Notes under the pieces: generated by a model
Databases searched by the model: none
Seen by the model: the letters and a program-made list of their open reading frames with translations, nothing else
Told to the model about the DNA's origin: nothing
Shown: positions 1 through 61,830 of the stretch, in pieces
Numbering within the stretch: the first letter of the stretch is position 1
Layout of the letters: each line of letters starts with the position of its first letter
Assembly (NCBI GenBank): GCA_030390025.1
Contig: CM059432.1
Location: 66,094,001-66,158,000 of the forward strand
Source: Squalus acanthias
Lineage: Eukaryota
Direction: 5' to 3'
DNA length: 64,000 nucleotides
Translations under genes and position numbers: made by a program

Positions 1-175
1 AAACGGGCAGACAAGTCTTACCTGAAAGACCGTACTTCTGACAATACAGCACTCTCTCAGTACTGTGCTGAGATATCAGCATAAGATGTATGCTTAAATC
101 CTGTAATGGGGCATAAATAATACAACCTTCTAACCCAGATATATGAGTGCTACTATCACTGAGCCAAGCTGATTA
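1..175 (-). mobile_element. DeuSINE (SacSINE1-like) 5' head fragment
   Basis: Similar to the SINE heads at 14760-14847/15479-15560 and 36720-36890 (cagcactc.ctcagtactg; acaaccttct.ac.caga...gtgctac.a.ctgagcca). Reverse complement of a tRNA-like head. Confidence 0.7.
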
Positions 176-947
176 TTTTTTAACTGACAACAGCTATTCT
201 ATGATCTGAGTTCTTTCAGCGTAATGTTGGGAAGCAGGTCATTTGAAGTGCTGACCCATTCTGATATACACTCCTGCACCCCCTGCCCCACACTTCATTT
301 GAGAGGTACTCTAAATTCCTTCTGCTCCGAAAGGGGGACATTCTGTAATTGGTGCAACAATTTTTCCACATTAGTGGAGAAACTAGCTAGTAATCTTGAG
401 ATTAAGAAATGTTTTGGGCCAAAAAATTACTTTTAATTACTGATTTTTTTTGTAGTTATGCTCTAATAATAAAATTGTGAAAAAAGTTACTGTAAACAGT
501 AACAAAAGTAGGGACATATTTATGCTCCTACCATATCAGTGTGAGGCAAACATAGGTAGATAGACTGAATACTGAACAGTCAGGCTATGAATAGAGATTA
601 CTCCAACATTGCCAAATGATATATAGCATTTTAGTACATTTTATGTGCCATGACTGCAATTATGCACTATGGAGCTGTGGAAGGAGCAGAGAGTAAAATT
701 GATTTGTTTTCTGTGCATCACAGGACATCTGCATTTTTTAATTTTAAATGAAAAAAACTGGCTTCAATCAATGGCACAGGTAAAGTGTACCATTTTTCAT
801 AACTTTTGTAAAACAAACAAAACAAAGAGTGAAAACAAAAATGTCAGAAAAGTATGTCCAAAAGATATTACTGACTTTATTCTTTGCTTTAAAAAGAAAC
901 CGATTTGCATAAATTTGAAACACTGGAGGCAATGGCTTTGGACTCAC

Positions 948-1031
948 CAGTAAGTAAGCCCAATAGAGAACCAGGCAAACTGGCATCTATCTCTGTATTC
1001 AGATGGCACAGCTGATCCGCATGGCACACCA
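948..1031 (-). other. Candidate 84-nt phase 1-1 cassette exon of the MYT1-family gene
   Basis: Minus-strand acceptor taattttattcag and consensus donor CTG|gtgagt. Open in the frame left by the ATG exon: (V)VCHADQLCHLNTEIDASLPGSLLGLLT. No homology recognised. Confidence 0.3.
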
Positions 1032-1329
1032 CTGAATAAAATTACATTTTTATGCTCTGGTGCACTCAGCTATTAGTATCACACCAGCAGAGATTACAAA
1101 ATTCTACCTCATGTTTCATGATGGTCTACGTGAGACAATCTATTTCATATTTACGTTGCACAGATGTAAGTAATGTAGTTTCCACAGCTTTAAGCAAGAA
1201 AATGAATTAACATAAATGGTAATTTTTTTGCTTGTATTAGAAAATTAATATTTTAAAATGTTTTATCACCCTTCTTGTAATGCTGGTTTTTGTATTATTC
1301 AACAAGGAAAAATCATGTGACTAAAAGAG

Positions 1330-1525
1330 GAGGTAATTTTCAGAGTTCACGCTGCTGGCAGACTCTCCACTGTTGGCCGTATGTATCGAGAAATTGCAGG
1401 CATGCTGCCTATAGTTCACCATCCATTAAAATCGATAAATGGAAAATCATGGGCCACATGCCCGTAATTTTCCAATATGCATTGCCGATAAGAAAGCTCC
1501 CACTGGCATTCCAAACTCAGAAGGT
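1330..1525. repeat. Degenerate palindromic (hairpin) MITE-like element
   Basis: Imperfect inverted arms (gagttcacgctgctggc / ccactggcattccaaactc; aaattgcaggcatg / catgcccgtaattt) centred on ccattaaaatcgataaatgg. Confidence 0.5.
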
Positions 1526-1634
1526 TCGTCCTATTATCTTTATACATTTGCTCATTGTCCCTGGGATTTTAGCACTCTGGAGTTGTGGAATGGATAAAAA
1601 CAGTACAATTAGTCATCATTGTACAAAATATTTT

Positions 1635-2090
1635 GGGGTAGAAATTGTATCTCGTTGCTCCTGATTAGTGAATGAGGGCCAATTTTGGGGCCCAACGTCC
1701 CGTGCCTAAAGAACTGCTGAAAGATGTCTAACCTTACACTGGGTCGTGCCATTATTCAGACATCCCTGGCAGCTGCCTAAAACAGGCATTAGTCCCTTGC
1801 ATATGTAAATGAGGGGCCTAACGCCTGTTTTAGCACACACCGCCCCCCCCCTCCCCCTACTAAATTGGAGATCACAGAGTAGAGCAGGAGCTCGGGATTC
1901 CTCAGCGACCACTGCGACATAAGCAGAGGCTGCCACCAAAAGCTTTGCTTTTGTATAAAAATGTTAAGAATGTTCCTGTGGAGCCAGGAGGAGCAGGAGC
2001 GTTCCCCTGACTCCACAGTACGCATGATCAGCTGCTACACTGTTGTCACTCCACCTCCTTCCCAGGAATTACCTTCAGGCCATTGCCACG
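1635..2090. mobile_element. Non-autonomous GC-rich DNA-element remnant with a Harbinger-like end
   Basis: Begins ggggtagaaattg, like the other TIRs in the window. Contains the ggagccaggaggagcaggag motif also found at ~32617 and, reverse-complemented, at ~55200. Truncated by a CR1. Confidence 0.5.
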
Positions 2091-2092
2091 AG

Positions 2093-3692
2093 GCAAGTTG
2101 AAATTTTTGAGGAAGTAACCAAAATAGTAGACAAGGGAAAGTCTATGGGTGTCGTTTATATGGACTGCCAGAAGGCATTTGATAAGGTTCCACATAAGAG
2201 ACTATTAGCTAAAATTAAAGATCATGGAATGGAAGGCAAATTATTAATCTGGTTAGGAGATTGGTTAGGCGGTAGAAGACAGAGATTAAGGATAGGTATG
2301 TACTCGAATTGGAAGGAAGTGACTAGTGGTGTCCCACAAGTACTTGTGCTGGTGCCCCAACTATTCACTATTTATTCATGAGTAAGATAGCACAATAGAG
2401 AGCCGTGTATCCAAGTTTGCTGATGACACAAAGATTGGTGATATACAGGAAACTCTTTATTAACCGGCACCGACGGGACCGGCATGGTGCCGGTTAATCA
2501 AAAAGTCCGGATAATGGAGAGTTATATCTCCCAACGTACGAGAGCCCCGTACACACTGACATGCGCCTGCATTCGGAGCTCCGTCTCCCCGGGGACCGCC
2601 AGCTGACCATCTGTCATGTCCGCTGCCTACCCGGGCTGCACATTCCCCTCCCAATCTACATGCTCCGATACAAGGCAAACGCCTCGGGGTTTTTTTTTAA
2701 GTTATTTTTAAAGGAGAGATGAAGGAAAACCCCGGTTACCTACTCAAGAATTTTGCCGGTTAAGAGAGATTTCCGGTTATTTGGGTGCCGGTTAAAAGAG
2801 AGTTTCCTGTAGTAAGTAGTGTAGATAGGAGCATAACATTACAAAAATACATTGATAGATTAAGTGAGTGGGCAAAACTGTGGCAGATGGAAATGCAACG
2901 CAGGTAAGTGTCAGGTCATCCATTTTGGACTAAAATAGGATAGATCCGAGTGTTATTTAAATGGTGGAAAGCTTAGAACAGAGGAGGTCCAAAAAGATTT
3001 AGGGGTCCATGTACACAGATCACTAAAATGTAGTGGTCAGATACAAAACATAATCCAAAAGGCTAATGGAATGTTAACCAGAGGGCTAGAATATAATGGG
3101 GATAAAGTTTTGCTGCAGCTATACAAAGCCCTGGTTAGGCAACATCTGGAGTACTATGCACAGTTTTGGGCAACGCACCTTCGAAAGGATATATTGGCCT
3201 TGGAAGGAGTGCAGCACAAATTCACCAAAATGTTACCAGGGCTCCAAGGGTTAGATTATGAGAAGAGATTACATAAACTAGGCTTGTATACCCAGGAATA
3301 TAGAAGGTTAAGGGGTGATTTGATTGAGGTTTTTAGGATTTTGGAAGGAATTGATAGGATAAATAGAGAGAAGCTTTTTCCGCTGGTGGGGGAGTATGGG
3401 ACAAGGGGACATAACCTTAAAATCAGGGCCAGGCCATTCAGGAGAGAAGTTAGGAAACACTTCTTCACGCAAAGGGTGGTAGAAGTGTGGAACTCTCCCA
3501 CAAAAAGCAGTAGACGCTAGCTCAATTAATAATTTTAAATCTGAGATCGATAGATATTTGCTGGACAAGGGTATAAAAGGATATGGAGCCAAGGCAGGTG
3601 GATGGAGTTAAGATACAGATGAGCCGTGATCTCATTGAATGGAGGAACAGGCTCGAGGGGCTGAATGGCCTACTTCTGTTCCTATGTTCCTA
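2093..3692 (+). mobile_element. CR1 LINE, 5'-truncated and decayed (RT plus 3' UTR)
   Basis: RT motifs YMDCQKAFDKVPH, SGVPQ, FADDTK, LYKALVRQHLEY, RGHNLK; 3' tail tcctatgttccta; multiple stops and frameshifts. Confidence 0.95.
2446..2809. mobile_element. Tc1/mariner (pogo/Tigger-like) MITE nested in the CR1
   Basis: TIRs caggaaactctttattaaccggcacc / ggtgccggttaaaagagagtttcctg, flanked by TA on both sides (2444-45, 2810-11). The CR1 RT resumes after it. Confidence 0.9.
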
Positions 3693-4784
3693 AGGAGGCA
3701 CAGTGGTCAGCACACATGATTCATGGTGCTCCGAATTTTCCAGTGGTTAATTTTAATGACTTGAACATCTGAATTGGGTGCGTGATTGATGTACTCGATT
3801 CCCTGATCCACAGTCCCATTGAGCAAGGATTCATCCTTGGAGCCATTCCTTGCAAAATGTCCCTGAATGTCTCTACAGAATAGAAAATTACATCTGAATG
3901 GATGTTCCACTACTAGACCAATGGGAAGGTCACCAGAATGGAGGGTTATGTGACCTTCCACTAATTCTTTCCCAGAACCACACCCAAGCTGTAGACTATC
4001 AGGGATCATATGCATATTCCATCAATAAATAACTGTTAGATGCATACTGCACCACACGATCAGATACATACTTCACCAATGAACGATAGGGATTGCACAA
4101 TAAAAAGCACAGCTAGATGTTAACTGCACCACTGGGTAGCAGAAATCGGACACAAACATCACCAACTTGTCCACAGAAATCAGACACATGGTCCTCAAAA
4201 TTCCTGGGGTCGGAGAGGGTGGAAATCATGATTTTTGCACACGGGAACCAGGAATGTGGAACAAACCTGGTTCAGCAAGGATTCCATCTCATTTAGGCTT
4301 TCTCTTTAAACTCTGATAGGAAGCCATGGATGGATCTGCCATTCGACTTCCACCCCCTCCGCTCCCCCCCCCCCCCCGCCCAATATCAAGGGGTATGTCT
4401 GGGGAAGTTACCTGGTTCCCCCTGGAAATTTTGCCCTTCACGCCTTCCATAGGCCTCAGTGGAGCACACGCCAGCTGAGTGCTGTTGTGAGTCCCATTGA
4501 ACTTGTAAAAAGGCCCCAAGCCTGGAGGAGATCGATTAACTTGCAAAAAAAGTTTGCTTGCTCCATGGGAGGAGCTTGTTGGTGGAATTTAAACGAGGGC
4601 CGAACCCAAATTTGGTTTTGGGTGGAAGTCAAATTTTTCAGCCAGAGTCTCCACCTTGAGGCCAGGACAGGTGGGGTCCATATTTTACTTGCGTTGCCAG
4701 AGATCCTCTTCTCTGTAAGGAACTGGGCTGCTGTCAGTTCTGATGACCATGAAGCATAAAAAGAAAAACTTTAAAGTCTGAAAC

Positions 4785-5140
4785 TCTAGTCTATGCTGAG
4801 TTATCTGGTCTCAACCAGAGTATTTGCAGGGGCACTACAAGAGACTTCATCGCTTCTGGGTTAGGGAGGAGAAATCAGCTAGATCATTTCTGATTGCTAT
4901 CCAGTGATCTCTGCTGGAAGTGCAACCGCCCTCCCCCCACCCCACCCGTGTGGGCGTTGGTTGAGATCAGGATTGGACTTAGCTGTGATGCCCTCAATGG
5001 CCAGGCAGCCAACACTCACTGTTGAAGCTCACAACTGAATAATGGCCACTTGGTTGAGGCACCAAATGGCAACCAGTACTCATGGAATTATGAAACAAAG
5101 AACCAAATGGGGAAAAGGTGGGGGGAGAAAATTGGCAAAA
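4785..5140 (+). mobile_element. Unclassified SINE-like interspersed repeat
   Basis: GC-richer block (tctatgctgagttatctggtctc...gggttagggaggagaaatcagc...aatggccacttgg) resembling a common shark repeat as I recall it. Family not verified. Confidence 0.45.
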
Positions 5141-5671
5141 AAAAATGAAACGCCATATTCAGTTTTTTGCTAGAGGTCTAGGTACAAGTGCAGACATTTA
5201 CCCAGAAAATAGCAGAAAGTATATCCAGACATAGAAAAAATTGCATTCGGCATTTTAGTACATGTAGAATATTGGTTAGAAACAAGGGACTGACATCTTT
5301 GAACCTAAAGCAGCCTGCAATACAACTGCAGTACTGGTGTAAAACGGTTCTCAGTTCAACTTGATGCTGAAATGTGAGGCCTAACCTGACTCCAGAATTA
5401 TACTAAAACTTATTAGCATCGGTGCAAAGCAAAACAGCTTTGTAGTGTAAATGCAGCCGGAAATTTGTACATAAAAGCCAAAAGGACCATATGGATACTT
5501 TGGGGTTCAATTAAAATGCTCATACATAAAAATGATGAAGCAACTAAATTGGATCAAAATTTTTGTCTAGTTGTAAAATGATCAACAGTTCATTGTCACC
5601 TTTCTTTGTTATGGTGATTCCATACTTTTCTTATTCCAGCTGTGGTAGCGGTATATGCCTACATCATATTC

Positions 5672-5760
5672 GGTATGGTAGCATAGTGGTAATGTTACTG
5701 AACTACTAATCCAGAGGCCTGGACTAATGATCCGGAGATGTGAGTTCAAATCCCACCATG
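5672..5760 (+). promoter_or_regulatory. tRNA-derived Pol III head (A and B boxes)
   Basis: A-box-like tagcatagtgg and B-box gttcaaatcc. A similar head occurs at ~20551-20657. Confidence 0.75.
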
Positions 5761-8548
5761 ACAGCTGGGGAATTTACATTCAGTTATTTAAATAAAATCT
5801 GGAATAAAAAGTTAGTATCAGTAATAAAACTACCGAGATTGTCGTAAAAACCCATCTGGTTCGCTGATGTCCTTTAGGGAAGGAAATCTGCCGTCCTTAC
5901 CTGGTCTGGCCTGTATGTGACGTCAGACCCACAGCAATGTGGTTGACTCTTAACTGTCCTCTGAAATGGCCTAGCAAGCTACTCTGTTTTACCAAACCGC
6001 TACAAAAAACAATAAGAATAAAACCGGACGGACCACTCAGCACCGGCTTCGGATACGACAAAGGCACACATAGTCCAGTCGACACTGCAAAGTCCTCTTC
6101 ACAAACATCTAGGGACTTGGGCCAAAATTGGGAGAGCTGTCCCACAGACTAGACAAGCAACAGCCTGACATAGTCATACTCACAGAATCATACCTTTCAG
6201 CCAAAGTCCCAAACTCCTCCATCACCATCCCTGGGTATGTCCTGACCCACCGGCAGACCCACCAGAGGTGGCGGCACAGTGGGATACAGTCAGGAGAGAG
6301 TGGTCCTGGGAGTAATCAACATTGACTCTGGACCCCATGAAATCTCATGGCTTCAGGTCAAGCATAGGCAAGGAAACCTCCTGCTGATTACCACCTACCG
6401 CCCTCCCTCAGCTGATGAATCAGTACCCCTCCATGTTGAACACCACTTGGAAGAAGCACTGAGAGTAGCAAGGGCACAGAATGTCCTCTGGGTGGGGCAC
6501 TTCAATGCCCATCACCAACAGTGGCTCGGTAGAACCACGACTGACCGAGCTGGCCGAGTCCTGAAGAACATAGCTGCCAGTCTGGGCCTGCGACAGGTGG
6601 TGAGCGAACCAACACGAGGGAAAAATCTACTTGACTTCGTCCTCACCAATCTACCTATCGCAAATGCATCTGTCCATGACAGCTTTGGTAGCCGTGACTA
6701 GCGCACAGTCCTTCTGGAGATTAAGTCCTGTCTTTACACTGAGGACACCCTCCATCGTGTTGTGTGGCACGACCATCGTGCTAAATGGGATAGATTCAGA
6801 ACAGATCTAGCAGCTCAAAACTGGGCATCCATGAGGCGCTGTGGGCCATCAGCAGCAGCAGAATTGTACTCCACCACAATCTGTAACCTCATGGCCCGGC
6901 ATATCCCTCCCTCTACCATTACCATCAAGCCAGGGGACCAACCCTGGTTCAATAAGGAGTGTAGAAGAGCATGCCAGGAGCAGCACCAGGTGTACTTAAA
7001 AATGAGGTGCCAACCTGGGGAAGCTGCAACACAGGACTACGTGCATGCTAAACAGCAGAAGCACAATGCTATAGACAGAGCTAAGCAATCCCACAACCGA
7101 CAGATCAGATCAAAGCTCTGCAGTCCTGCCACATCCAGTCGTGAATGGTGGTGGACAATTAAACAACTAACGTGAGGAGGAGGCTCCATGAACATCCCCA
7201 TCCTTAATGATGGTGGAGCCTAGCACGCAAGTGCAAAAGACAAGGCTGATGCGTTTGCAACCATCTTCAGCCAAAAATGCTGAGTGGATGATCCATATTG
7301 GCCTCCTCCTGAGGTCCCCACCATCACAGATGCCAGTCTTCAGCCATTTCGATTCACTCCACATGATAGCAAGAAACGGCTGAGCGCACTGGATACAGCA
7401 AAGGCTATGGGCCCTGACAACAACCCGGCTGTCGTGCTGAAGACTTGTGCTCCAGAACTAGCCACGCCTCTAGCAAAGCTGTTCCAGTACAGCTACAACA
7501 CTGGCATCTACCCAACAATGTGGAAAACTACCCAGGTATGTCCTGTCCACAAAAAGCAGGACAAATTCAATCTGGCCAATTACCACCCCATCAGTATACT
7601 CTCAATCATCAGCAAAGTGATGGAAGGTGTCGTCGACAGTGCTATCAAGTGGCACTTACTTACCAATAACCTGCTCATCGATGCTCAGTTGGGTTCCGCC
7701 AAGATCACTTGACTCCTGACCTCATTACAGCTTTGGTCCAAACATGGACAAAAGAGCTGCATTCCAGAGGTGAGGTGAAAGTGACTACCCTTGACATCAA
7801 GGCAGTATTTGATCGAGTGTGGCATCAAGGAGCCCTAGTAAAATTCAAGTCAATCGAAATCGGGGGAAAACTCTCCACTGGCTGGAGTCATACCTAGCAC
7901 AAAGGAAAATGGTTGTGGTTGTTGGAGGACATTCATCTCAGCCCCAGAACATCACTGCAGGAGTTCCTCCGGGCAGTGTCCTATGCCCAACAATCTTCAG
8001 CTGCTTCATCAATGACCTTCCCTCCATCATAAGGTCAGAAGTGGGGATGTTCGCTGATGATTGCACAGTGTTCAGTTCCATTCGCAACTCCTCAGATAAT
8101 GAAGCAGTCCATGCCCACATGCAGCAAGATCTGGACAACATTTAGGCTTGGGCTGATAAGTGGCAAGTAACATTCACACCACACAAGTGCCAGGCAATGA
8201 CTGTCTCCAACAAGAGAGAGGCTAATCACCGCCCCTTGACATTCATCGGCATTACCATCGCCAAATCCCCCACCATCAACATCCTGGGGGTCACCATTGA
8301 CCAGAAACGTAACTGGGCCAGCCACATAAATACTGTGGCTACAAGAGGAAGTCAGAAGCTGAGTATTCTGCGGTGAGTGTCTCACCTCCTGAATCCTCAA
8401 AGCCTTTCCACCATCTACAAGGCACAAGTCAGGACTGTGGTGGAATACTCTCCACTTGCCTGGATGAGTGCAGCTCCAACAACACTCAAGAAGTTCGACA
8501 CCATTCAGGACAAAGCAGTCCGCTTGATTGGCACCCCATCCACCACCT

Positions 8549-10874
8549 GGATTAATTAATGATCTTGAAGTGAAGGATCCTCTTGGGAAGAGTGATCATA
8601 GCATGGTATAATTTCAAATTCAGTTTGAGGGTGAGAAAGCTAGGTCTTAAACTAGTGTCCTGAATGTAAACAAAGGTAATTACAAAGGTGTGAAGGCAGA
8701 CTTGGTTAAAGTGGACTGGGAAAATATATTATAGGGTAAGATTGTAGAAAAGCAGTGGCAAACATTTAAAGAGATATTTCATAACTCTCAGCAAAGATAT
8801 ATTCCAGTGAGAAAGAAAGACTCTAAGAGAAGGATGAACCATCCGTGGCTAACTAAGGAAGTAAAGGATGGTATCAAATTGAAAACAAAAGCATACAATG
8901 TTGCAAAGAATAGTGAAAGGCCAGAGGATTGGGAAATTTTTAAAAACCAGCAAAGGATGACTAAAAAAATGATGAAGAGAGAGAAGATAGCTTATGAGAG
9001 TAAGCTAGCAAGAAATATAAAAACAGACAGTAAGAGCTTCTACAGGTATATAAAAAGGAAGAGAGTAACTAAAGTCAACGTTGGTCCCCTAGACGATGAG
9101 TCTGGGAAATTAATAATGGGAAACGGAAATGGCAGAGACTTTGAACAAATATTTTGTATCGGTCTTCACGGTAGAAGACACTAAAAGCATCCCAATAATG
9201 GATAATCAAGGGGCTATTAGGGTGGTGGGGGGGGGGGGGAACTTAAAACAATCACTATCACTAGAGAGAAAGTACTAGGCAAACTAATGGGACTTAAGGT
9301 GGACAAGTCCCCTGGACCTGATGGCCTGTATCCTAGAGTCTTAAAAGAGGTGGCTGCAGAGATAGTGGATGCATTGGTTGTAATCTACCAAAATTCCCTG
9401 GATTCTGGAGAGGTCCCAGCAGACTGGAAAACCGCAAATGTAATGCCCCTATTTAAGAAAGGAGGGAGACAGAAAGTAGGCAACTATCGACCAGTTAGCC
9501 GAACATCTGTCATTGGGAAAATGCTGGAGTCCATCATTAAGGAAGTGATAGCAGGTCATTTAGAAAATCATAATATAGTCAGTATGGTTTTATGAAAGGG
9601 AAATCATGTTTGACAAATTTGCTGGAGTTCTTTGAGGATATAACGAGCAGGGTGGATAAAGGAGAACCAGTAGATGTCGTGCATTTGGATTTCTAGAAGG
9701 CATTCAATAAGTTGCCACATAAAAGGTTACTGTACTAGATAAGAGCTCACGGGGTTGGGAGTAATATATTAGCATGGATAGAGGATTGGCTAACTAACAG
9801 AAAACAGAGAGTCAGGATAAATGGGTCATTTTCAGGTTGGCAAACTGTAACTAGTGGGGTGCCGCAGGGATCAGTGCTGAGGCCTCAACTATTTACAATC
9901 TATATTAATGACTTGGATGAAGGGACTCAGTGTAATGTAGCCAAATTTGCTGATGATACAAAGATAGGTGGGAAAGCAAATTGTGTGGAGGACGCAAAGA
10001 ATCTCCAAAGGGATATAGATAGGCTAAGTGAGTGGGCAAAAATCTGGCAGATGGAGTTTAATGTGGGAAAATGCGAGGTTATCCACTTTGTTAGGAAAAA
10101 TAAAAAAGCAAATTATTATTTAAATGGGGAGAGATTACAAAATGCTGAGGTACAGAGGGATCTGGGGGCCCTTGTACATGAATCACAAAAAGTTAGCATG
10201 CTGGTACAGCAAATAATTAGGAAGGCAAATGGAATGTTGGCCTTTATTGCAAAGGGAATGGAGTATAAAAGTAGGGAAGTCCTGGTACAACTGTACAGGG
10301 CGTTAGTAAGACCACACCTGGAGTACTGCGTACAGTTTTGGTCTCCTTATTTAAGGAAGGATATATTTGCATTGGAGGCAGTTCAGAGAAGGTTCATGAG
10401 GTTGATTCCGGAGATGAAGGGGTTGTCTTAAGAAGAAAGGTCGAGCAGGTTGGGCCTATACTCACTGGAGTTTAGAAGAATGAGAGGGGATCTTATTGAA
10501 ACATATAAGATTCTGAAGGGGCTTGACAGGGTAGATGCAGAGAGGATGTTGCCCCTCGTGGGTTAATCTAGAACTAGGAGGTAAAATTTCAGAATAAGAG
10601 GAAACCCTTTTAAATCAGAAATGAGGAGGAATTTCTTCTCTCAGAGGGTCGTGAATCTTTGGAATTCTCTTCCCCAGAGAGCTGTGGAGGCTGGGTCATT
10701 GAATATATTTAAGGTGGAGATAGACAGATTTTTGAACGATAAGGGAGTCAAGGGTTATGGGGAACGGGCAGGGAAGTGGAGTTGAGGCCAAGATCAGATC
10801 AGCCATGATCTTATTGAGTGGCGGAGCAGGCTCGAGGGGCCAAATGACCTACTCCTGCTCCTACGTCTTATGCT
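8549..10874 (+). mobile_element. CR1 LINE (APE C-terminus, RT, 3' UTR) nested in the older LINE
   Basis: Motifs KSPGPDG, WKTANV, NYRPVS, VPQGSVL, FADDTK, LVRPHLEYC. Host sequence ccatccaccacc|ttaaacattc is contiguous across the insert when compared with the intact copy at ~48722. Confidence 0.95.
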
Positions 10875-12331
10875 CTTAAACATTCACTCCTTACACCACT
10901 GGCGCGCTGAGGCTGCAGTGTGTACCATCTATAAGATGCACTGCAACAACTTGCTAAGATTTCTTCGACAGCACCTCCCAAACCCACAACCTCTACCACC
11001 TAGAAGGACAAGGGCAGCAGGTGCCTGGGAACACCACCATCTCCAAGTTCCCCTCCAAATCACGCACCATCCTGACTTGGAAATATATCGCCGTTCCTTC
11101 ATTGTCGCTGGGTCAAAATCCTGGAACTCCCTCTCTAACAGCACTATGGGAGTACTTTCACCACACGGATTACAGCGGTTCAAGAAGGCGGCTCACCACC
11201 ACCTTCTCAAGGGTAATTAGGGATGGGCAATAAATGCTGGCCTTGCCCACATCCCAGGAAGAAATAAAAAAAAAAGCCTGGCACCTTGTCTATGTCGGGT
11301 CCACAATTGAGTTCAAACCTCAGTCAAACCAGAACCCTATGAACGACACTCCAGCACTCTATTCATTGCTAAACTCGGTGTGCCTGTGAGTAAAACTGGC
11401 TTTAGATAGATTTAGAAATCCCTTCTGTGAACTAGATTGGCCTGTTCATTCCTGTGGGCCTGCAGTAGATCTACCGAACTGCAGCATTTTGACCTGCTGA
11501 GAATAGCTGGTAGAATTCATCATTTGCATCATCTGCAGGACTAGCCCTGACAGTGTGGGGACATTTTATGTTGCTACCACTGGCAGTAAGGAGATAACAG
11601 GAACTTCACCCAAACAGTAAGTTGAGGATGGAACAAATGAAATGGTTTGGGGACGGATTCCATCCTCCCCCACCAAATTGGACAGCTGCCTCACTAGGGG
11701 CAGAGCTGCAGTTGAGTCAGAGAAACGATGATAATTTATTTTTAAATTCAGTGATGCAATAATGAGTTCAGCCACTGCTGATACTGGAAAACTGTAAATC
11801 CAGGAGACAGGTTAATCATTTCACCACCCATTCTGTCAATTACCTTCTTTTAGCTCCTCAATGCTAACCCATTATCCAGTGTTAATCCCAGCAGGAATAC
11901 TAATTTACCTGTTGGTAGCCATTGCCAGCAGTTTGAACATTATTCAAAAATCAAATGGTACAATCATCATTAAAAGACATTTCTTGCAATATTGTAGTCA
12001 ACATGCTAGCAATTGCACTCAGAGTGGGTAAAATTATTTTCAGCTAAGGTTCAAAAAGAAAATAAGCTTTTACATACATTTTTAAAGAGCATCTACAATA
12101 AACAAGCTGTTATGTGGTCCATTATTTGTCCTTATTAAACTTGACAGTACAGTATATGTTTAAAATCACCCCACTACCTCACTTCTGTTGAATACATCTC
12201 TTCTGATGAATGCATCACATTTGGAAAAGCCAATATTAATTCAGTGCCAGCCCATCAGGAGCTCTCCACAGGAACTGACCTGTTTCCTACTGTGTGGAGC
12301 AAAGTGATTTAAGACCTATTCAACAACTCAC

Positions 12332-12386
12332 CCCTAGATCCTTTAGAGCGTGTGCGCAGTCTCTTTTCCTCACTGTCTGTATCCAT
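12332..12386 (-). CDS. ST18: First coding (ATG) exon of a MYT1-family C2HC zinc-finger transcription factor; ST18 preferred, MYT1L possible
   Basis: 55-nt exon: acceptor ctaac...ctcaccatgttccag|ATG and donor AGGG|gtgagt. Translates as MDTDSEEKRLRTRSKGSR(V), matching the family N-terminus (ST18 MDAEAEDKTLRTRSKGTEV; MYT1L MEVDTEEKRHRTRSKGVRV, from memory). Family call is strong; paralog call is moderate. Confidence 0.8.
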
Positions 12387-14222
12387 CTGGAACATGGTGA
12401 GAGATGTTAGTGGCAACTATTGCCCATGATTTCCGGCACTCATCTTACCATAAATTAATAATAATAAATAAAGCAAAGACTTTGCATAATAGTTTTGCAC
12501 TGTTATATACTGTTTTCACCAAACCTATCTCAGTCATTACTGGTTGAAGGTCATCTCTAATTTTTACATTCTCAGAAAGGAACTGAGTGAACAGGATGTG
12601 CTGTTACCTTAGTTTAAATGGGAAACATGACTCTTTTATCTAATGTTGTGTTGTGATTGAAAGCAGTGACCTGTATTAGATTTATAATAGGGGAGCAGGT
12701 GTGGCTATGATGGACCTTAATTTCCTTTAATAAACCTTTTGTGCGCTGCACTCATATGGCAATACGATGCTCTCTGAGGCCCTACGCATAATAGGTTCAT
12801 TACTTTTGATTACTATGGTCTATTGAGAGAAAGAACTCCCCAACACACTATATTATATGCTGTTAAACCAATATATATACCATTTATTCATTTTCTTTCA
12901 GTAGTTCACATGCGGCACTTAGTGATTTTAACAACTGGCCTTCATAAATTAAACGATCAAAAGACACAACTGGTGTATTTTATAGCAGGTAGAATTAGCA
13001 TCCGTGCGATCTGTTTTCTTGCTGCATCCATCTCACAAGTTAGTCTAAATTTGATTTGGCTGTGCATAACAATAATAAATCTTTAATCTCACAAAACATT
13101 GTGGTAAATCGACAAGAGTGGATTTATAATATCTGGGGGAAAGATAAAGCAGGTCAGATTGACCTGACCAAGCTTTCTATTTTAGTAGCTTTTCTAAGAA
13201 GGAAATCTCTTCTGTTCGAAATTAATGAAGACTCTGACACACAAACATCCTCCGAACTAAACTAATTTCTGCGGCACATTGAAAATGTGTATAATTTGGA
13301 TGCAGCCACTAAAGGATAAAATTGCTTTGCAATATGTGGCAATAAAATGTAAGATTTATGGGCTTTATTTAAAAAAATGCAATCCTGGCTAGCTGTAGTT
13401 ATTAAAAAAATATTTAAGTAGGGCAGTGCTATATCTGCCATCACAAAATATATATAAACAATTCTTGCTGCAACTTCTGCTGCTTCTTCCACACTCTTCC
13501 CTGAATCATATTGGTAGGTTTGTTCCCTAACACCTGAGTGCAAGTTTGTGGGGTCTGACCAACTCAATTTTTTTTAAAAGTTTGATTTTCTTTGCAACAG
13601 GCAAAAATCTGAATTTTGCATAAGTAACACTGGAACATACAAGGGAAGCAAGCCTTATACAGACAATGATCGCACAGGAAACCCGATTAAAAACTTAAAA
13701 AGTAGGGTAAAGGAGAAGTGGGTAAGATCTCACATTTAATGCAGTTAACTAGCAATAATGCACTTGATATATGCAGTTCTGTCAAATTAAGGGCATGATA
13801 ACCTGATAGTTTGATTATCAGTCTTGCTCTTTATAATCAAGCCTATCCTCAATATAGCAAGACTTCATAGCCTAGAAATTACTGTTGGTAATATTATTAG
13901 AGAAACATGTAACACTTTCATATAAAATTCGCCTATCCACTATTTGAACAGAGGAACAATCCCATTTATTTCAAACAGGTTAACACCTCTGTTAAACTAA
14001 CAGAAAGAGAATGGCTACTGTAACAGTGTGCATCTCTAAAAATAGAAAATGAATGAACTGTAAATAAAGCTAATTAGCACTCTCTAATTTTGTTGTACAG
14101 CAAATTGTAAAGTAATCCCAGTTTAAAAAAAAATAGCTTCTAGGACCTTAGAGGTGTCAGAGTATCACTGCACCACTGAGCTTATCTGCAACAGAAATAT
14201 CTAATGAAGACACTAGGCTCAC

Positions 14223-14329
14223 CTTTGTCGGTTTGCCGTTACAGTTATCTGGTGCTTCACAGTGTCCAAGCTTTTCACTGTTTCCACGTATCAATGTCTG
14301 CTTTAACAGGTAATCCTGAAATTCATTCT
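14223..14329 (-). other. ST18: Upstream (5'UTR or N-terminal extension) exon of the ST18-like gene
   Basis: Strong acceptor tgtttttaatcttgcag and donor AAG|gtgagc; 107 nt. Only one frame is open (NEFQDYLLKQTLIRGNSEKLGHCEAPDNCNGKPTK), and it joins the ATG exon in frame. Confidence 0.75.
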
Positions 14330-18033: not shown

Positions 18034-18493
18034 CTCTCTCAGGATGACAGCATTCCTGCTCCCACCACTGCCACCCCGCCATTGCCCTTGTCGCTGCCTG
18101 TCATCCAGCCAGCCCAGATTGCTGCCATCCATGCTGAGGTGATGCAGTGTACAGCCGGGCCTTCCAGGCCCAGAGCTGGTCGAGGGTGTCCTGCAAGGCC
18201 ATCTGTAGTCTCTGGCACTGACACTCAGCAGCCTTCCACCAGCCCTGCTGCAGCCACTGGGCCTACACTTCGTAGGAGCACTAGAGTAGGCAAAGGCACT
18301 GTAACAAGAGGCACTAAGGGATTGCACAAGGGTGAATAGCTAATATTGTTGTAAATATGAGTTCATTGATTACTGATTAATTAGCTTTGGATAATTTTGT
18401 GGTGTCTCTCATTTGAGCTTTGCACTGTGATATGGCCTGCAACAGGAATGGAATGATGGGGATGTGGTGAGCAATGGGGATCTGGGATTTAAT

Positions 18494-19588
18494 TTATTGG
18501 AACTGCAGTCTGATGAGGTGGTCACGGACTGCCCTCCCAAAAGGCAGATTGAGTGGCTGCCTCTTCCCTCGCTCCTGTTCTATGTCCTCATCCTCATCCT
18601 CCTCCTCCTCCTCTCTCTCTTCCTCCTCCTGAGGTGGTCCCGCAATCCTTGGTGGCAAGGGCTGGGCCCTCATGATGGCCAAGTTGTGGAGCATGCAGCA
18701 GACCACGACAAAATGGGACACCCACTCAGCCGAGTACTGGAGGGCTCCTCCCGAGTGGTCAAGGCAGCGGAACCATTGCTTGAGCACCCCGATGGTCTAT
18801 TCGATGATATTCCTGGTGGTGGCATGGCTCTCATTATATGGGTTGCGGAGGGGAGTCGTGACCCAGGTGGAGAGCGGATAGCCCTTGTCTCCGACCAGCC
18901 AGCCGCGAGCTGGCACAGGTTTGGCGCAGGTCTGGCGCAGGTTGAAGGCAGCGTGGCTGTTGCCAGGATTGTGAGCATTGACATTGAGGATTCGCTGTCT
19001 GTGGTTGCACACCAACTGCACATTAAGTGAGTGGTAGACTTTGCAGTTATGGAAGATCTCAGGATTGTTATGCCCGCAAAGCCACGTGGGTGTAGTCAAT
19101 GGCGCCCTGCACCATGGGGAAGCCCGCTATCCTGGCAAAGCCACATACACATACATCCTGGTTCCCTCTGGTGATGGGGAAAGAAATGTAGTCCCTTCTC
19201 TTGCTGCAGAGAGCCTCTGTGACCTCCCGGATGCATTGATGGACGGTGAACTGAGATGTTCGCTATATCTCCTGTTGCAGACTGGAAGGAACCGCTGGCG
19301 AAGAAATTGAGGGTGACGGTGACCTTGACTGCCACTGAGAGCGGTGGTCAACCTGATCTGAGGCTCGAGGTCTGGTTGCAGGAGGTGGCAGAGTTCGGTG
19401 ACCACTTCCTTGCTGAATTGAAGGTAGGAGAAGTGCTCTCGGAATAGCCTCAGAGGGTAAGGCCTCCTGTTGAGAGCCTTGATGGCCCTCCTCCTCCCTC
19501 TGGCCACATCTTGCAATCTTTCTCACTGCCTCCGCTCCCTCCACAGTAGATCCTGGAGGGTGAAGTCGGCTGCCAGTACAGCCCCCAT
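18494..19588 (-). pseudogene. HARBI1-like Harbinger DDE transposase, disrupted
   Basis: Fragments across frames: [85 protein letters not shown]. Confidence 0.92.
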
Positions 19589-28701: not shown

Positions 28702-29873
28702 ATGGGTGCCGCTTATACTGTCTCACCTTGGTCCTCAGAATCAGACCAAGATGAGCCCCACCACCAACAACACCAGCCACACCAGCAGCAGCAGCCAAAA
28801 CACCAGCAGCAACCACAACAGCATTCTTCTCCTCAACGACCTGATGCTCCACAGGAGGGGGACACCACAGGGCAGCACCGCGCCGGAGATGATAGCCCCA
28901 ACATAGGGTATACAGGTAGAGGATAAGTTTCCTCAACATGACTGAGCAGCAGTGCTTCAGGAGGCTCAGGCTATCGCACCAGGTCATCACAGACATTTGT
29001 AGCTTGCTGGAACAAGATCTGCTGTCCAGAGGTCCTGGTGGACACTCCTTACCAGTGGCTGTCAAAGTCACCACTGCCCTCAACTTCTTCACCTCAGGCT
29101 CCTTCCAGGGATCTGCAGCAGACATTTGTGGAATCTCACAGTTGGCCGCCCACTGATGTATCACCCAGGTGCGATGCCATGCTTCACAAGTCCACCAATT
29201 ATACTAATTTTGACACTGATGAGGCCAGTGTTACTGAGCGGGCGCTCGGCTTTGCGGCTCTGGTTGACTTCCCACAGGTGCAGGGTGTCATCGACTGCAC
29301 ACATGTGGCCATGAAGGCACCCCATCATCACCCAGGAGTGCTTGTGAACTGCACCCTCAATGTGCAGCTCGTCTGCAACCATAAAAAGATGATTATGCAT
29401 GTGTGTGCCAGATTCCCTGGCAGCTGTCATGATTCTTTCATGCTGCGCCAGTCCACCCTCCCTCAGCTGTTCACACCTCCAAACACACTTACCGGCTGGC
29501 TGCTTGGAGACAAGGGCTAGCCACTGAGGACATGGCTCATGACACCATTGAGGATGCCAAGTACTGAGGCCGAGGAGCATTATAATGAGAGCAAGCAATA
29601 GGCATGATGAAGAAGCGCTTCAGATGCCTTGACAGATCTGGAGGAGCCCTTCAGTATGCACCAGCCAGGGTCTCCTGAATCATCGTTGTTTGCTGCGTGC
29701 TGCACAACATAGCGCAGCAGCAAGGACTGGAGCTGCAGGAGCAGCAAGGAGCAGAGCACACAACCTCTTCTTCTGCTGAGGAGGAGGAACCTGAGATAGA
29801 GATGGCACCAGCAGCGGTGCACATTGCTGCCGGGAAGGTCCGGGATGGCCTCATCAGGGCCAGATTTACTTAA
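28702..29873 (+). pseudogene. HARBI1-like Harbinger transposase, disrupted
   Basis: [81 protein letters not shown]. Frameshifts and stops. Confidence 0.92.
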
Positions 29874-34810: not shown

Positions 34811-36548
34811 CCAGGGATCAGGTGGAAAATGTAGTATAAATAATAGTTCAAAAACAAACGAAAGGGAAGAGAGTAGAGTAACAGCCAGAAATTGTGCTTT
34901 AGGCACTACAGGTAAAGGGAAAACTAAAACATGTAAAGTGATTAAACCAGAAGAGAGAAATAAGAAACATGTGAGTAAAACATTAGAGCTGAAGGACAGG
35001 CTAGGGTGTGTGGCCCAAATAAGCGTTCTTTATACAAACTCACGGAGTATAAGGAACAAATTGAATGAACTGCAGGCACAAATTCAACTTGGAGGGTATG
35101 ACATGGTAGCCATTACTGAGACATGGCCGCAAGACGGTCAGGACTGGAAACTAAATATACCAGGTTATAAGGTCTACAGGAAAGATAGGGAAAATGGTAG
35201 AGGGAAGGAGTAGCCTTCGTGATTAAGGATGAAATCACTTCAATGATAAGAGAGGATATAAAGAGAGGTAAACAGGCAGTGGAGACTTTATGGGTAGAAT
35301 TAAGAAATAGGAATGGATTTAAGACTGTAGTGGGAGTTGTGTATAGGCCCCCGGTGGCAGCTGTGAAGTGGTAGATTGTATAAATGGAGAGATTAGACAA
35401 GCATATAGTAAAGGCAGAGTGGTTTTAATGGGGGATTTTAACTTTCATATAGATTGAGATAAGCAGACTAGCATCTGTCAGAAAGGTAGTGAATTTCTTG
35501 AGTGTGTCCGGGATAGTTTTCTGCAACAATATGTCCTAGAACCAACAAGGGGGGCATGACATATTAGATTTAGTAATGAGTAATGAGCCAGATTTAGTTA
35601 ACAGCCTAATGGTGCGTGAACATTTATGTAATAGCGATCATAACATGATCGAGTTTAACGTAATGTCTGAAAGGGAGAAACATGAAACAGCTACTAAGAT
35701 TCTAGTTTTAGGTAAGGTTGATATTGATAGATTAAGTGAATGGGCAAAACTGTGGAAAATGGATTTCAATGTAGGCAAATGTAAGGTCATCCACTTTGGA
35801 GCTAAAAAGGATAGAACAGGGTACTTTCTAAATGGTGAAAAGCTAAAAACAGTGAAGGTCCAAATAGATCATTAAAATGTCATGAACAGGTACAGAAAAT
35901 AATCAAAAAGGTTAATTGAATGCTGGCCTTTATATATAGAGGACTAGAATACAAGGGGGTAGGAGTCATACTTCAGCTATACAAAGCCCTGGTTAGACCA
36001 CACCTGGAGTACTTTGAGCAGTTCTGGGCACCACGTGTTAGAAGGATATTGGCCTTAGAGGGAGTGCAGTGTAGGTTTACCAGAATGATACCTGGACACC
36101 AAGGATTAAATTACAAGGGGAGATTACATAAACTATGGTTGTATTCCCTGGAATTTAGATGGTTAAAGGGTGACTTGATTGAAGTTTTCCAGATATTAAG
36201 GGGGACAGATAGAGTAGATAGAGAGAAACTATTTCCGCTGGTTGGGGAGTCTAGGACTAGGGGGCATAGTCTAAAAATTAGAGTCAGACCTTTCAGGAGT
36301 GAAATTAGGAAACACTTCTACACACAAAGGGTGGTAGAAGGTTGGAACTCTTCTGCAAACGGCAATTGATGCTAGATCAATTGTTAATTTTAAATCTGAG
36401 ATTGATAGATTTTTGTTAACCAAAGGTATTAAGGGATATGGGGCAAAGGCGGGTATATGGAGTTAGGTCGCATATCAGCCATGATCTCACTGAATGGCGG
36501 AACAGGCTCGAGGGGCTCAATGGCCTACTCCTGTTCCTATGTTCCTAT
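34811..36548 (+). mobile_element. CR1 LINE with large internal deletion
   Basis: APE (VLYTNSRSIRNKLNEL, AITETW, YRPP, SDHN) is joined at ~35720 directly to the post-catalytic RT (DIDRLSEWAK); tail cctatgttcctat. Confidence 0.92.
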
Positions 36549-47809: not shown

Positions 47810-49130
47810 AAGGTGTCATCAACAGTGCTATCAAGTGGCACTTACTCACCTGTTCACTGATGCCCAGTTTGGGTTCCGCCAAGACCACTCGGCTCCCGAC
47901 CTCATTGCAGCCTTGGTCCAAACATGGACAATGGATCTGAATTCCAGAGGTGAGGTGAGGTGAGAGTAACTGCCCTTGACATTAAGGCAGCATTTGACCA
48001 AGTGTGGCATCAAAGAGCCCTAGCAAAACTGAAGTCAATCGGAATCGGGGGGAAAACTCTCCACTGGCTGGAGTCATACCTAACACAAAGGAAGATGGTT
48101 GTGATGGTTGAAAGTCAATCATCACAGTCCCAGGACATCGCTGCAGGAGTTCCTCAGGGCAGTGTTCTAGGCCCAACCATCTTCAGCTGCTTCATCAATG
48201 ACCTTCCCTCCAACATAAGGTCAGAAATGGGGATGTTCGCTGATGACTGCACAGTGTTCAGTGCCATTCACAACTCCTCAGATAATGAAGCAGTCCCTGC
48301 CCGCATGCAACAAGACCTGGACGATGTTCAGGCTTGGGCTGATAAGTGGCAGGTAACATTCATGCCACAGAAGTGCCAGGCAATGACTATCTCCAACAAG
48401 CGAGAGTCTAACCACCGCCCCTTGACATTCAACGGCATTACCATCACCGAATCCCCCACCATCAACATCCTGGGTGTCACCATTGACCAGAAACTTAACT
48501 GGACCAGTCACATCAATACTGTGGCAACAAGAGCAGGTCAGAGGCTAGGTATTCTGCGGCGAGTGTCTGACCTCCTGACTCCCCAAAGCCTTTCTACCAT
48601 CTACAAGGCACAAGTCAGGAGTGTGATGGAATACTCTCTGCTTGCCTGGATGAGTACAGCTCCAACAACACTCAAGAAGCTGAACACCATCCAGGACAAA
48701 GCAGTCCACTTGATTGGCACCCCATCCACCACCTTAAACATTCCCTCCCTCCACCACCAGCGTACCGTGGCTGCAGTGTGTACCATCTACAAGATGCATG
48801 GCAGCAACTCGCCAAGGCTTCTTCGGCAGCACTTCCCAAACCCGCAACCTCTTCCACCAAGAAAGACAAGGGCAGCAGGCGCATGGGAACACCACCACCT
48901 CCAAGTTCCCCTCCAAGTCACACACCATCCTGACTTAGAAATATATCGCGGATCCTTCATCGTCACTGGGTCAAAATCCTGGAACGCCCTCCCTAACAGC
49001 ACTGTGGGAGTACCTTCACCACACGGACTGCAGCGGTTCAAGAAGGCGGCTCACCACCACCTTCTCAAAGGCAATTAGGGATGGGCAATAAATACTGGCC
49101 TTGCCAGTGACACCCACATCTCATAAACAA
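47810..49130 (+). mobile_element. 5'-truncated second copy of the tRNA-headed LINE family; RT C-terminal half open
   Basis: ORF 47960-49078 (372 aa): LDIKAAFDQVWH, GVPQGSVLGP, FADD, YKAQVRSVMEY. Collinear with 7625-8547 plus 10875-11260. Confidence 0.95.
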
Positions 49131-58797: not shown

Positions 58798-58846
58798 TGG
58801 CTAATAGTGCAATGGCTAATAGTGCAATGGCTAATAGTGCAATGGC
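58798..58846. repeat. 15-bp tandem repeat, ~3.3 copies
   Basis: (tggctaatagtgcaa)3 followed by tggc, perfect copies. Confidence 0.95.
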
Positions 58847-61689
58847 AAGTCAAAGAAACGGAGGCCAGTCAAGAGCTCTTCGCTCTGTAGAAATAATTTA
58901 CTTGAATGGAGACATCTTACTCCAAGAAATAGATTACTGATCCAGTTTGTAATCTACTTTTTTAAACAAAACTCTCACTCCTAGCAACACCCTGTCCTTT
59001 ATCCTTCTGGAAACCCGACGTTGTTCACAATAACTAACAAAGTGCAAGACCGAAATTACCTCTATTAAAAATGTATTATTATTGCTCATCTGTGATTGAT
59101 TAGCAGTAAAGAACTTCTCAGTGCACTATACTAAGTAATTGAGTACAGAGTAAATTTAACCCAGTGGTCACTTTTTTTCTGACCAATGACCCATACTCAA
59201 TTTCTCAGAATAGTACATGGGCTGTTCTTTTTTGCACACCTCGATGACGCTACAGATGCCCATTTCAGATTGCCTGTATTTCATAATTCTGTGTTCTGAG
59301 GTTATTGAGATCAGGGGAATTCCCTGCATGACTTTGGTTTGACTAACATATCAACAGCTTTGTAATACAATATGAGCCAATGCAAGTTAACAATCCAATA
59401 CATTTGCAACAGCAAATTTCAGAAGCTTCACTGTTGAGTAAAGTTAGGAATAATATCTGATTCATTTTGACAGAAGATTTGTATTTTGAGCCAAGGTGCA
59501 TTATAACAAGATTGTCAGGCAGCTTTGTTTTTAACCTTGTAAAGCATATTGATTTTTCTGCTCACTTCTTTGGTAGGTTCTATATTTAGATAGATAATTA
59601 TTTTACGAGTAGCATGTTTGCAAATGTATTGGCAGTTCCTGAATTCATATTGTCCGAAATTCAAACAGAACTCTTCAAAAGTAAAATGTTTTAATACTTC
59701 ACCCCATTCATCTGCTTTAGGTGAGATTGTGGCTGTTAATGGTCTCAGTCACAGAGAGGATGTAAAGAGACAGATAAGAAGAACTTACAGGCATCACAAA
59801 AAACAGCAACACTCCCTCTGTGAGTAAACTGTAGGCAGGCACCAAGGACAGCTCCTCAAAGTTCCTAACACTACTTTAGCATAAACCTGCATAGCAGCCT
59901 GCTTACCATCACAACCAACTGCATTCTCACTGTATAATGCTAAGATAATTAAGACCTTCTACAGGTTAAAAGGAGTATCTGTCTGAGGATTCAGGGTCAC
60001 TCCTTTTTGTTCCACATTATTTTACTAGACTTCTAATAGAAAATGTTATTAATTCAGATGTTGAAAGAAGAAGTGGTTGCCGACATTTAGTACATCCATA
60101 TAAAGAAGCACATACAGCAGTGTCAGCATTTACATGGAATATTACATGAATAGCCCCATACACAAACACTTCAAGAGATATGAGTGTAGAATTCAGACTT
60201 AGAGGGGACACTGAAGAAAATCCGAGTTGCCTGGCTACAGTGGATTACAGAATGCCATCTATAAAAAGAGTTCATCCAGTTGATAGATAAATTGAAGAGG
60301 ATTTTTTTTTAGTAGAAGTCATTAAACATGTACGCTTCATGTACGAGCTGGTTTTTACTTTGCCTTTCTTCAACTTTGTCAACTGGAAGTTATATTTGTA
60401 CTAAAAGTGAAATACTGAATTTGAAAATTACCATACCATTAATTGCAAACAGTGGCAATTAGTTTCAATTTTAATGTTAAAGCCTATGTGCTCTTTGGTA
60501 ACAGATTTTAAATGTTTTACAGGAAATAGCTTTTGAAAGAACAAGTGTACAACAGAGCATGAAGTTTGAAATGACTGCATTTGCAACAAACATATTGTAC
60601 ACATAAACATAGTATCATACACTTAAAATAAATATGAATAATACTTTGAAACTGAGTGAAAATCATAGCATATTACAGAACTGAACAGATGGAAATGCAG
60701 CATTCGCTAACTGAACAAACTTCCTATACAATAATGATAATTAGCGATGCCCCGCTCACCAGAAAACAATCAGACAACTGAATTTCTGCTGACAACCAGG
60801 CTGGCTTTTCTGAGAATACATTTTTTTCCTTTTACTTTTTGACCTAAGGCTAGTTTATTCACATTATTGTTGTACAGTGATAAGCTATAGAAGGCTATTC
60901 AGAAATGTACTAAATAGGTCATGCATTAATACAGTACTTAGTCAAAAACATTTTGTGATATGAATTGTCTTCTTCCAACAACATAGGCAGAGTCTGACTT
61001 TAGAAACAGAAGCTTTCTCAATGCTTATACCTAGTTGTGAAAGATCCATCAAAAAACTCCAAAAGCTTATACTTAAGTACATAAAGAAGTGTTTTAAAAA
61101 AAGTTTTAATAATTTCGAGATGAACACAGTATCATTTTCTAATGCATGATTAAAGTAATGGAATTAATACTGTATTAAGAGTTTCATATCACAAAGCTTT
61201 AATTCTACTTAGATCCATTGAATTACTACTCACTGGTGCTAGAACTGATTACAGAAAATAAAATTTACCAAATTGAATCGTCTACTTTGCAATCACATAT
61301 ATGCTACCAAATCTTATAAAAATTCTGTTCTCTCCTCACAAGATTAATCTTCAAAGTATATATGTTAATATTTTCACTCCAAACAAACACAAAAAGAAAG
61401 TTTAATCTAAACCCAGCACATGCTTTACACCTCTTACTTTTTCATCTGCTTGTACTGGAGCTGTAGCAGTTCCCAAGATGCGATATCCAGTGCCTTTGAC
61501 TGCATAGAGATAAGCACCTGCATTTGTGTGCGTTTCTACGTCATACATCCCTATTCATAGCCCTCAATATTCTACATTTGCACATCAACAGCCTCACACA
61601 CAGATTTCGGCTCTGGGCCCAAAACTTTCACTTTAATTTTCATCACATGATTGCTGCAGCATATGTCCTTCCAAGCTTCCCATATATCA

Positions 61690-61830
61690 GTCATCATGCA
61701 AATGAGATAGAATATTACTCCTCTACAGCAGATGGCCAGGGAAGATAACAATGGCTGAAGAGGGGAGATTCAATGTCCCTGACTTTATTGCCACGGCAAC
61801 AACAATCTAAAATATATATAATGGAAGCTG
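61690..61830. promoter_or_regulatory. Candidate neural enhancer (Oct, bHLH, SOX, RFX motifs)
   Basis: ATGCAAAT 61696, CAGATGG 61729, AACAATGG 61747 and X-box-like ATTGCCACGGCAAC 61787, all within ~105 bp. Motif evidence only. Confidence 0.4.

Follow-up and report, generated by a model that had tools for sequence, protein, structure and literature searches.

A 107-nt exon upstream of the canonical start of ST18 in Squalus acanthias is likely part of an ancient alternative N-terminus

The stretch of DNA analyzed here (the window) comprises 64,000 nucleotides of Squalus acanthias (assembly GCA_030390025.1, contig CM059432.1, positions 66,094,001 to 66,158,000), and its minus strand carries the canonical first coding exon of ST18 (Myt3), a transcription factor of neurons and islets, together with exons lying upstream of it. 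The features to which the text refers are the following, in window coordinates:

12332..12386, minus strand: canonical first coding exon of ST18, 55 nt, MDTDSEEKRLRTRSKGSR, recognized by 18/18 identity to shark ST18 models.
14223..14329, minus strand: 107-nt ST18 exon, entered in phase 1 and left in phase 0, recognized by its splice signals, its frame, and the orthologous peptide in predicted models.
14303..14326, minus strand: 7-codon out-of-frame uORF MNFRITC* inside the 107-nt exon, read from the sequence.
61425..61437, minus strand: weak alternative donor of exon A (5/9 consensus, exon end 61431), 7 bases further on, from in-silico splicing.
61438..61548, minus strand: 3' part of exon A, a likely alternative first exon with several ATGs, recognized by tblastn and the starts of shark models.

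The assignment to ST18, a name taken from the source labels of the matching proteins, is supported by the 55-nt and the 107-nt exon. The 55-nt exon encodes 18 residues that agree completely (18/18) with the N-terminus of the ST18 models of Stegostoma and Chiloscyllium, and a 40-residue query over the 107-nt exon matched RefSeq ST18 isoforms in all cases (7/7; Heterodontus, Stegostoma, and Chiloscyllium), the exon peptide directly preceding MDTDSEEK in those shark models; the ST18 call of the first-pass annotation is thereby backed. Two orthologous models (P0017 and P0133) contain six zf-C2HC stretches and the MYT1 domain according to Pfam, and no further ST18 coding exon was recognized in positions 1-12331 of the window. 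The ATG of the 55-nt exon is formed by its first bases, directly after the acceptor, and in-silico splicing behind the 107-nt exon gives it an A at -3 and a G at +4. The last nine intron bases before this ATG (12387-12395, minus strand) read ATG TTC CAG, an in-frame Met-Phe-Gln, and the rabbit and Otolemur models start with Met-Leu-Gln at the same place, a likeness that suggests a conserved acceptor sequence.

The 107-nt exon is followed by an intron of 1,836 nt that leads to the 55-nt exon in the window (in-silico splicing), and is bounded by a TTGCAG acceptor on its 5' side and an AAG/GTGAGC donor on its 3' side, the latter agreeing with the consensus at 8/9 positions. The window sequence confirms what had been stated about its reading frames at first pass: two of the three contain stops, while the third (35 codons, NEFQDYLLKQ...KPTK) is open, ends at phase 0 and reads into MDTDSEEK, and the exon holds in-frame CTG, TTG, and ATA codons as well as the out-of-frame uORF MNFRITC*. 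If the long form exists, the coding share of the exon would be 36 codons, that is, the junction codon and the 35 residues. The open frame alone is weak evidence for coding in this exon, since chance openness amounts to 8-19%: when the bases of the exon are shuffled (20,000 times) the given frame is open in 8.0% of cases, and among 9128 minus-strand windows of 105 nt 1712 are open (18.8%). A second AG lies two bases into the exon (14327-14329, minus strand) and would, if used, leave an exon of 105 nt and bring the exon-A ATG at 61548 in frame with the strong exon-A donor.

The peptide encoded by this frame recurs in ST18 models of many vertebrates, and all of the orthologous evidence consists of computationally predicted gene models, and such predictions favour the longest ORF. 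The survey covered 259 named ST18 models from 126 species, with 14 unnamed proteins set aside, and the peptide profile matched at least 119 predicted ST18 models in at least 60 of the 126 species; these counts derive from the models listed per cluster and are biased towards retention, since one query itself contained the extension, the bias being strongest for the two teleosts and a species being counted only if its frame was open and annotated. Among the models listed, the peptide is present in sharks (8/11), chimaera (1/1), ray-finned fishes (9/11), birds (34/53), other sauropsids (7/15), and monotremes (1/2, the echidna), and was not found in therians (0/24) or in batoids (rays and skates, 0/9); absence from a model is no proof of loss of the exon peptide, and in 23 peptide-less species the models are also without the canonical N-terminus. 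In an alignment of 34 species chosen for carrying the peptide, its length is 35 residues in 29 species, 34 in three (galliforms), and 36 in two (teleosts). Synchiropus, whose models have an exon-B-like start and no recognizable exon peptide, was left out of the alignment. Identity to the window peptide is 77-91% in sharks, 51% in the chimaera, 40-49% in sauropsids, 34-37% in sturgeons, paddlefish, and bichir, and 31% in the echidna. Predicted long ST18 proteins, such as XP_067887927.1 of Heterodontus, XP_078396654.1 of Cetorhinus, XP_042188341.1 of Callorhinchus, and XP_072707374.1 of Ciconia, have the same peptide before the canonical Met. The first-pass annotation had proposed an unannotated extended proteoform; the extension agrees with the deep conservation of the peptide, but the word unannotated has to be given up, since RefSeq/GenBank models of 60 species include it.

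Database searches placed the peptide in no known family. Pfam gave no family match for the 107-nt exon peptide or for the other peptide queried, the ESM Atlas no usable match, and Rfam no match within positions 13000-64000 of the window, and an AlphaFold prediction of one long model (P0017), with a mean pLDDT of 40 and even the zinc fingers unfolded, was uninformative. When 1.84 billion representatives were searched with the 35-residue peptide (phmmer), five multi-stretch matches were returned, which were left out of the results. A metagenome contig (L001) that was the sole match to a degenerate pattern of the exon has a GC content of 28%, runs into a stop 16 codons on, and gave no tblastn match to ST18 models, so that it was set aside as a chance match. 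The 46-residue N-terminus of a rodent-like model (P0099), compared with the frames of the exon, gave uncorrected p values of 0.03, 0.11, and 0.71, which is unconvincing, and no therian frameshift was shown.

Upstream of the peptide, the predicted models point to further coding exons. In 29 of the 34 aligned models the peptide is preceded by a coding segment ending in Gly-Lys/Gln-Glu/Asp, or in a pipefish equivalent, referred to here as exon B. Most birds, turtles, and lizards start at MFLTECDLTGIPEK-like peptides approximately 94 residues upstream, mormyrid fishes start at MFFTVCDLGGTLEK, and in sharks, chimaera, sturgeons, paddlefish, and bichir the models use other Mets as their start, within exon B or ahead of it. 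The start peptides of a mormyrid (P0247) and a turtle (P0133) are identical at 9 of 14 positions (shuffle p ~1e-5, the pair having been picked by eye), and the start motif MF(F/L)TxCD is carried by 40 proteins. Among 26 distinct extensions with an MFL start, 22 measure 94 residues and four measure 91, 92, 93, and 95, which are whole-codon differences; frameshifted copies of the sauropsid extension could not show among proteins. Several species also have canonical-start ST18 models, and Chiloscyllium plagiosum has models with an exon-B-type start and models with an exon-A-type start. In the alligator, chicken, ptarmigan, and echidna, other upstream segments feed the exon peptide (among P0032, P0153, P0159, P0048, P0026, and P0029), and some owl, crow, and hummingbird models enter exon B from other starts; these varied upstream segments suggest a large number of alternative 5' exons in ST18. 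Whereas the predicted long models are fed by exon B, no exon B was found in the 50 kb upstream in the window (best profile E 3.2; the positive controls, from non-shark sequences, were weak, at E 0.07-42), and the start exon (exon C) was likewise not found in the window, where the best start-motif score was 20 vs. self scores of 42-53. Both exon B and the start exon likely lie beyond the 64 kb in this species.

What the window does contain upstream is exon A, located 47.1 kb from the 107-nt exon. Positions 61523-61438 match the starts of the Stegostoma and Chiloscyllium punctatum models at 27 of 28 residues by tblastn, and in those models QMKKNE reads in frame into the 107-nt exon. The carpet-shark models differ from this window in the phase of exon A, the donor lying here one base further on than in those models. 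With the stronger donor (exon end 61438, 7/9 consensus), the ATGs at 61548, 61523, 61505, and 61445 are all out of frame, and open uORFs of 45, 30, 24, and 4 codons, respectively, that stop inside the 107-nt exon; the weaker donor at 61431, if used, would place the ATG at 61548 in frame and give a 75-residue extension in in-silico splicing. The start of a Mustelus model is identical (40/40) to the frame of the 61548 ATG, reading past the first exon-A donor, and this identity across the donor means that the extra base in exon A is no assembly slip of this genome; the same model skips both the 107-nt and the 55-nt exon and looks unreliable for that reason. Since the phase of exon A is not kept among sharks, a leader exon fits better than a coding exon. 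Among sharks, exon A (27/28 residues in one reading frame and 40/40 in a second) is better conserved than the 107-nt exon, and this conservation despite a changing phase points to nucleotide-level constraint or to a conserved uORF peptide. A region search with exon A and the 107-nt exon together recovered the Stegostoma cluster only, one of five candidates. An equation of exon A with mouse E1A was unsupported, the by-eye primer likeness not ranking among the top five local alignments within the window. A pyrimidine-rich acceptor-like site occurs near 61755 (61700-61760, minus strand), with which exon A could be an internal exon of approximately 317 nt with 14 ATGs, and a faint resemblance to the start-exon motif, short of significance, is present at 61715.

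The 107-nt exon is likely part of an ancient alternative and longer N-terminus of ST18, begun at an ordinary AUG further upstream. On balance, it seems rather probable that its open frame represents a 35-residue segment of a predicted long ST18 of jawed vertebrates, and that the exon has a dual use, coding in transcripts that bring an AUG from outside the window and serving as part of a uORF-containing leader when transcripts come in from exon A. According to the models of other species, the long route would begin at the AUG start exon (mormyrids and sauropsids) or at a Met in the next exon (fishes), and would continue through exon B, ending ...Gly-Lys in phase 1, into the 107-nt exon and from there into the 55-nt exon, adding before the canonical Met about 58-130 residues that are probably disordered and contain no known domain. 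In the short route, as given by in-silico splicing, exon A would be joined to the 107-nt exon, with the tested exon-A AUGs and the internal AUG out of frame; the exon-A and internal uORFs would terminate within the 107-nt exon, those from exon A in its first codons, and ribosomes would arrive at the canonical AUG, which has a strong context, by leaky scanning or re-initiation, giving the short protein. Translational control, which had also been put forward at first pass, appears plausible in the form of uORF control for transcripts entering from exon A, as far as in-silico splicing indicates. We infer splicing, translation, and the loss in therians and batoids alike from sequence and predicted models. 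A more speculative picture, possible but with the balance against it, would be that of a module of three exons (~95-130 residues, starting with MF(F/L)TxCD) that was present in the ancestor of jawed vertebrates and was lost independently in therians and batoids, the multi-exon 5' UTR of mammalian ST18 being a coding fossil. The 107-nt exon would then be a promoter-controlled switch, giving the long protein on entry from exon B and, on entry from exon A, a short protein throttled by uORFs, with its first nine codons also holding the start and stop of a conserved uORF.

Conservation of the frame and conservation of the residues were considered separately. In the deep tree, the length is 8.9 for the exon peptide, 8.5 for the acidic region of ST18, 3.0 for the first 18 residues, and 1.2 for a zinc-finger region, the exon peptide thus changing at about the rate of the acidic region and far faster than the other two. 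When neutral evolution of the window exon was simulated over the tree of the peptide (8.9 substitutions per site; 3000 runs, 16 deep lineages), the frame was open without indels in a mean of 5.9 of the 16 deep lineages, with 14 or more open in 0.2% of the 3000 runs, and with indels in a mean of 1.4-2.2 of 16, 14 or more never being reached; the contrast is inflated because the lineages were picked for being open. Across species the open frame is kept beyond chance, with the retention bias of the sampling noted above. Constraint at the amino-acid level was not found in the peptide, whose substitutions are no more conservative than random missense: the mean BLOSUM62 score of exon changes is -0.85 between the window and other sharks, compared with -0.42 for neutral random missense and ~0 for the acidic region, and is -0.78 within sharks, -0.40 within birds, and -0.74 within turtles and lizards. 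Within birds, the exon has accumulated 1.49 distinct changes per site vs. 0.63 in the acidic region, that is, 2.4 times as fast. Since the frame is rarely kept under neutrality and the residues change in a neutral-like manner, selection apparently favours an open frame in phase over particular residues. Were a stop to arise in the long route, the productive start would become a long repressive uORF, and this could explain a frame that is kept while its residues drift.

The same neutral-like substitution spectrum would be expected if the 107-nt exon were essentially 5' UTR under nucleotide-level constraint (splice signals, uORF start and stop, regulatory motifs), the extensions being longest-ORF predictions from rare transcripts and the peptide a passenger, an explanation that we consider unlikely. 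The ATG of MNFRITC* overlaps codons N1-E2 of the extension frame and its TAA overlaps L8-K9; N1, E2, and L8 are invariant in the 34 species, and the last Lys, which coincides with the donor site, is near-invariant. These coincidences speak for this explanation, and the lack of a Pfam family for the peptide and the wholly predicted nature of the supporting models agree with it as well. Nevertheless, N1 and L8 each have one exception among additional birds (sandgrouse and loon), the observed length changes are whole codons, the same AUG start peptide is found in teleosts and amniotes, and retention of the frame in 16 deep lineages is rarely reached under neutrality. MNFRITC* itself may be a conserved regulatory uORF, the comparison having covered the residues over its ATG and TAA.

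Within the 107-nt exon, the in-frame near-cognate codons are CTG at 14309, TTG at 14294, ATA at 14291, and three AAG, and a hidden extension begun at the CTG, TTG, or ATA appears very improbable. The TTG has an A at -3, and the CTG position is Leu in 29 of the 34 species; yet the surroundings of the CTG are unfavourable (T at -3 and +4), conservation is lacking at the TTG and ATA positions (Leu in 8/34 and Ile in 4/34, respectively), and the best-conserved residues of the peptide lie 5' of all three codons. The continuation of the frame into upstream AUG-bearing exons in orthologous models explains the opening without any near-cognate start, and the proposal of such a start inside the exon, made at first pass, is therefore not sustained. 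A loss or minor role of the exon-B route in this shark lineage, the extension being supplied instead from exon A through the ATG at 61548 and the weak 61431 donor (75 residues), is quite improbable, if somewhat less so than a near-cognate start. It would account for exons B and C being missing from the window and for the open 61548 frame, with its 40/40 identity to the Mustelus start reading past the first donor; against it stand the weakness of the donor (5/9 vs. 7/9), the unreliable look of the Mustelus model, the phase of exon A, which differs between the carpet sharks and this genome, and the retention of exon B in the models of both catsharks (Scyliorhinus). A long N-terminus probably begun at an AUG in upstream exons outside the window is the reading retained here.

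Alternative N-termini are known in a related gene. Myt1 has the forms NZF-2a and NZF-2b, whose alternative N-termini arise from upstream first exons, the long form adding a zinc finger. The resemblance to ST18 lies in the choice of promoter or first exon leading to long and short N-termini; the ST18 extension differs in that it is without a Pfam domain, while the long form of Myt1 gains a zinc finger. Alternative N-termini that arise in this way are well known and involve no new mechanism, and the ST18 extension is already present in predicted annotation. What seems undescribed is the depth of the long form, the start exon shared by teleosts and amniotes, and the apparent absence from therians and batoids, and no description of a long ST18 N-terminus was found in the literature searched, which was mostly open-access.

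In mouse, St18/Myt3 has several first exons and uORFs in its leader, and reporter and knock-in experiments show translational control (PMC12887802). The skipping of exon E7 there creates an overlapping uORF with stress-dependent translation, and no such uORF is present in human (PMC12887802). The mouse leader thus resembles the window in belonging to the same gene and in having multiple first exons and leader uORFs, and differs in that no N-terminal extension is described in the accessible part of that paper, where the term 'N-terminal' occurs 0 times; judging from the primer and construct text available, mouse E7 lies downstream of the canonical AUG and so is likely not the 107-nt exon. Non-AUG extensions, as catalogued with PhyloSET/RiboSET (PMC9789052) or among translated 5' UTRs (PMC11317171), likewise consist of an open in-frame stretch upstream of an annotated AUG, but the ST18 frame is explained by upstream AUG exons. 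ST18, MYT1L, and MYT1 were not found in the searched supplements of PMC9789052 (some of its files) and PMC11317171, and the accessible parts of PMC3517555 and PMC9751150 contain nothing on long ST18 isoforms.

Mouse and human account for nearly all work on ST18/Myt3, and in both the protein begins at the canonical Met. Should the long form prove real, the ST18 of chicken, sturgeon, shark, and some teleosts would include a longer, ancestral isoform missed by cDNA constructs and antibodies, and the mammalian leader, whose uORFs control stress-dependent translation in islets (PMC12887802), may derive from former coding exons. This would, if true, provide a clean case of coding exons turned into regulatory UTR.

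The window as a whole is AT-rich and full of retrotransposon-like ORFs. Fragments at 7400-11200, 28900-29600, 18400-19500, 47950-49075, 35900-36400, and 2900-3500 are presumably reverse-transcriptase-like (LINE) and Harbinger-like transposase sequences. A stop-free stretch of 374 codons extends over 47954-49075, and a perfect 15-nt tandem repeat of 3.3 copies occupies 58798-58846.
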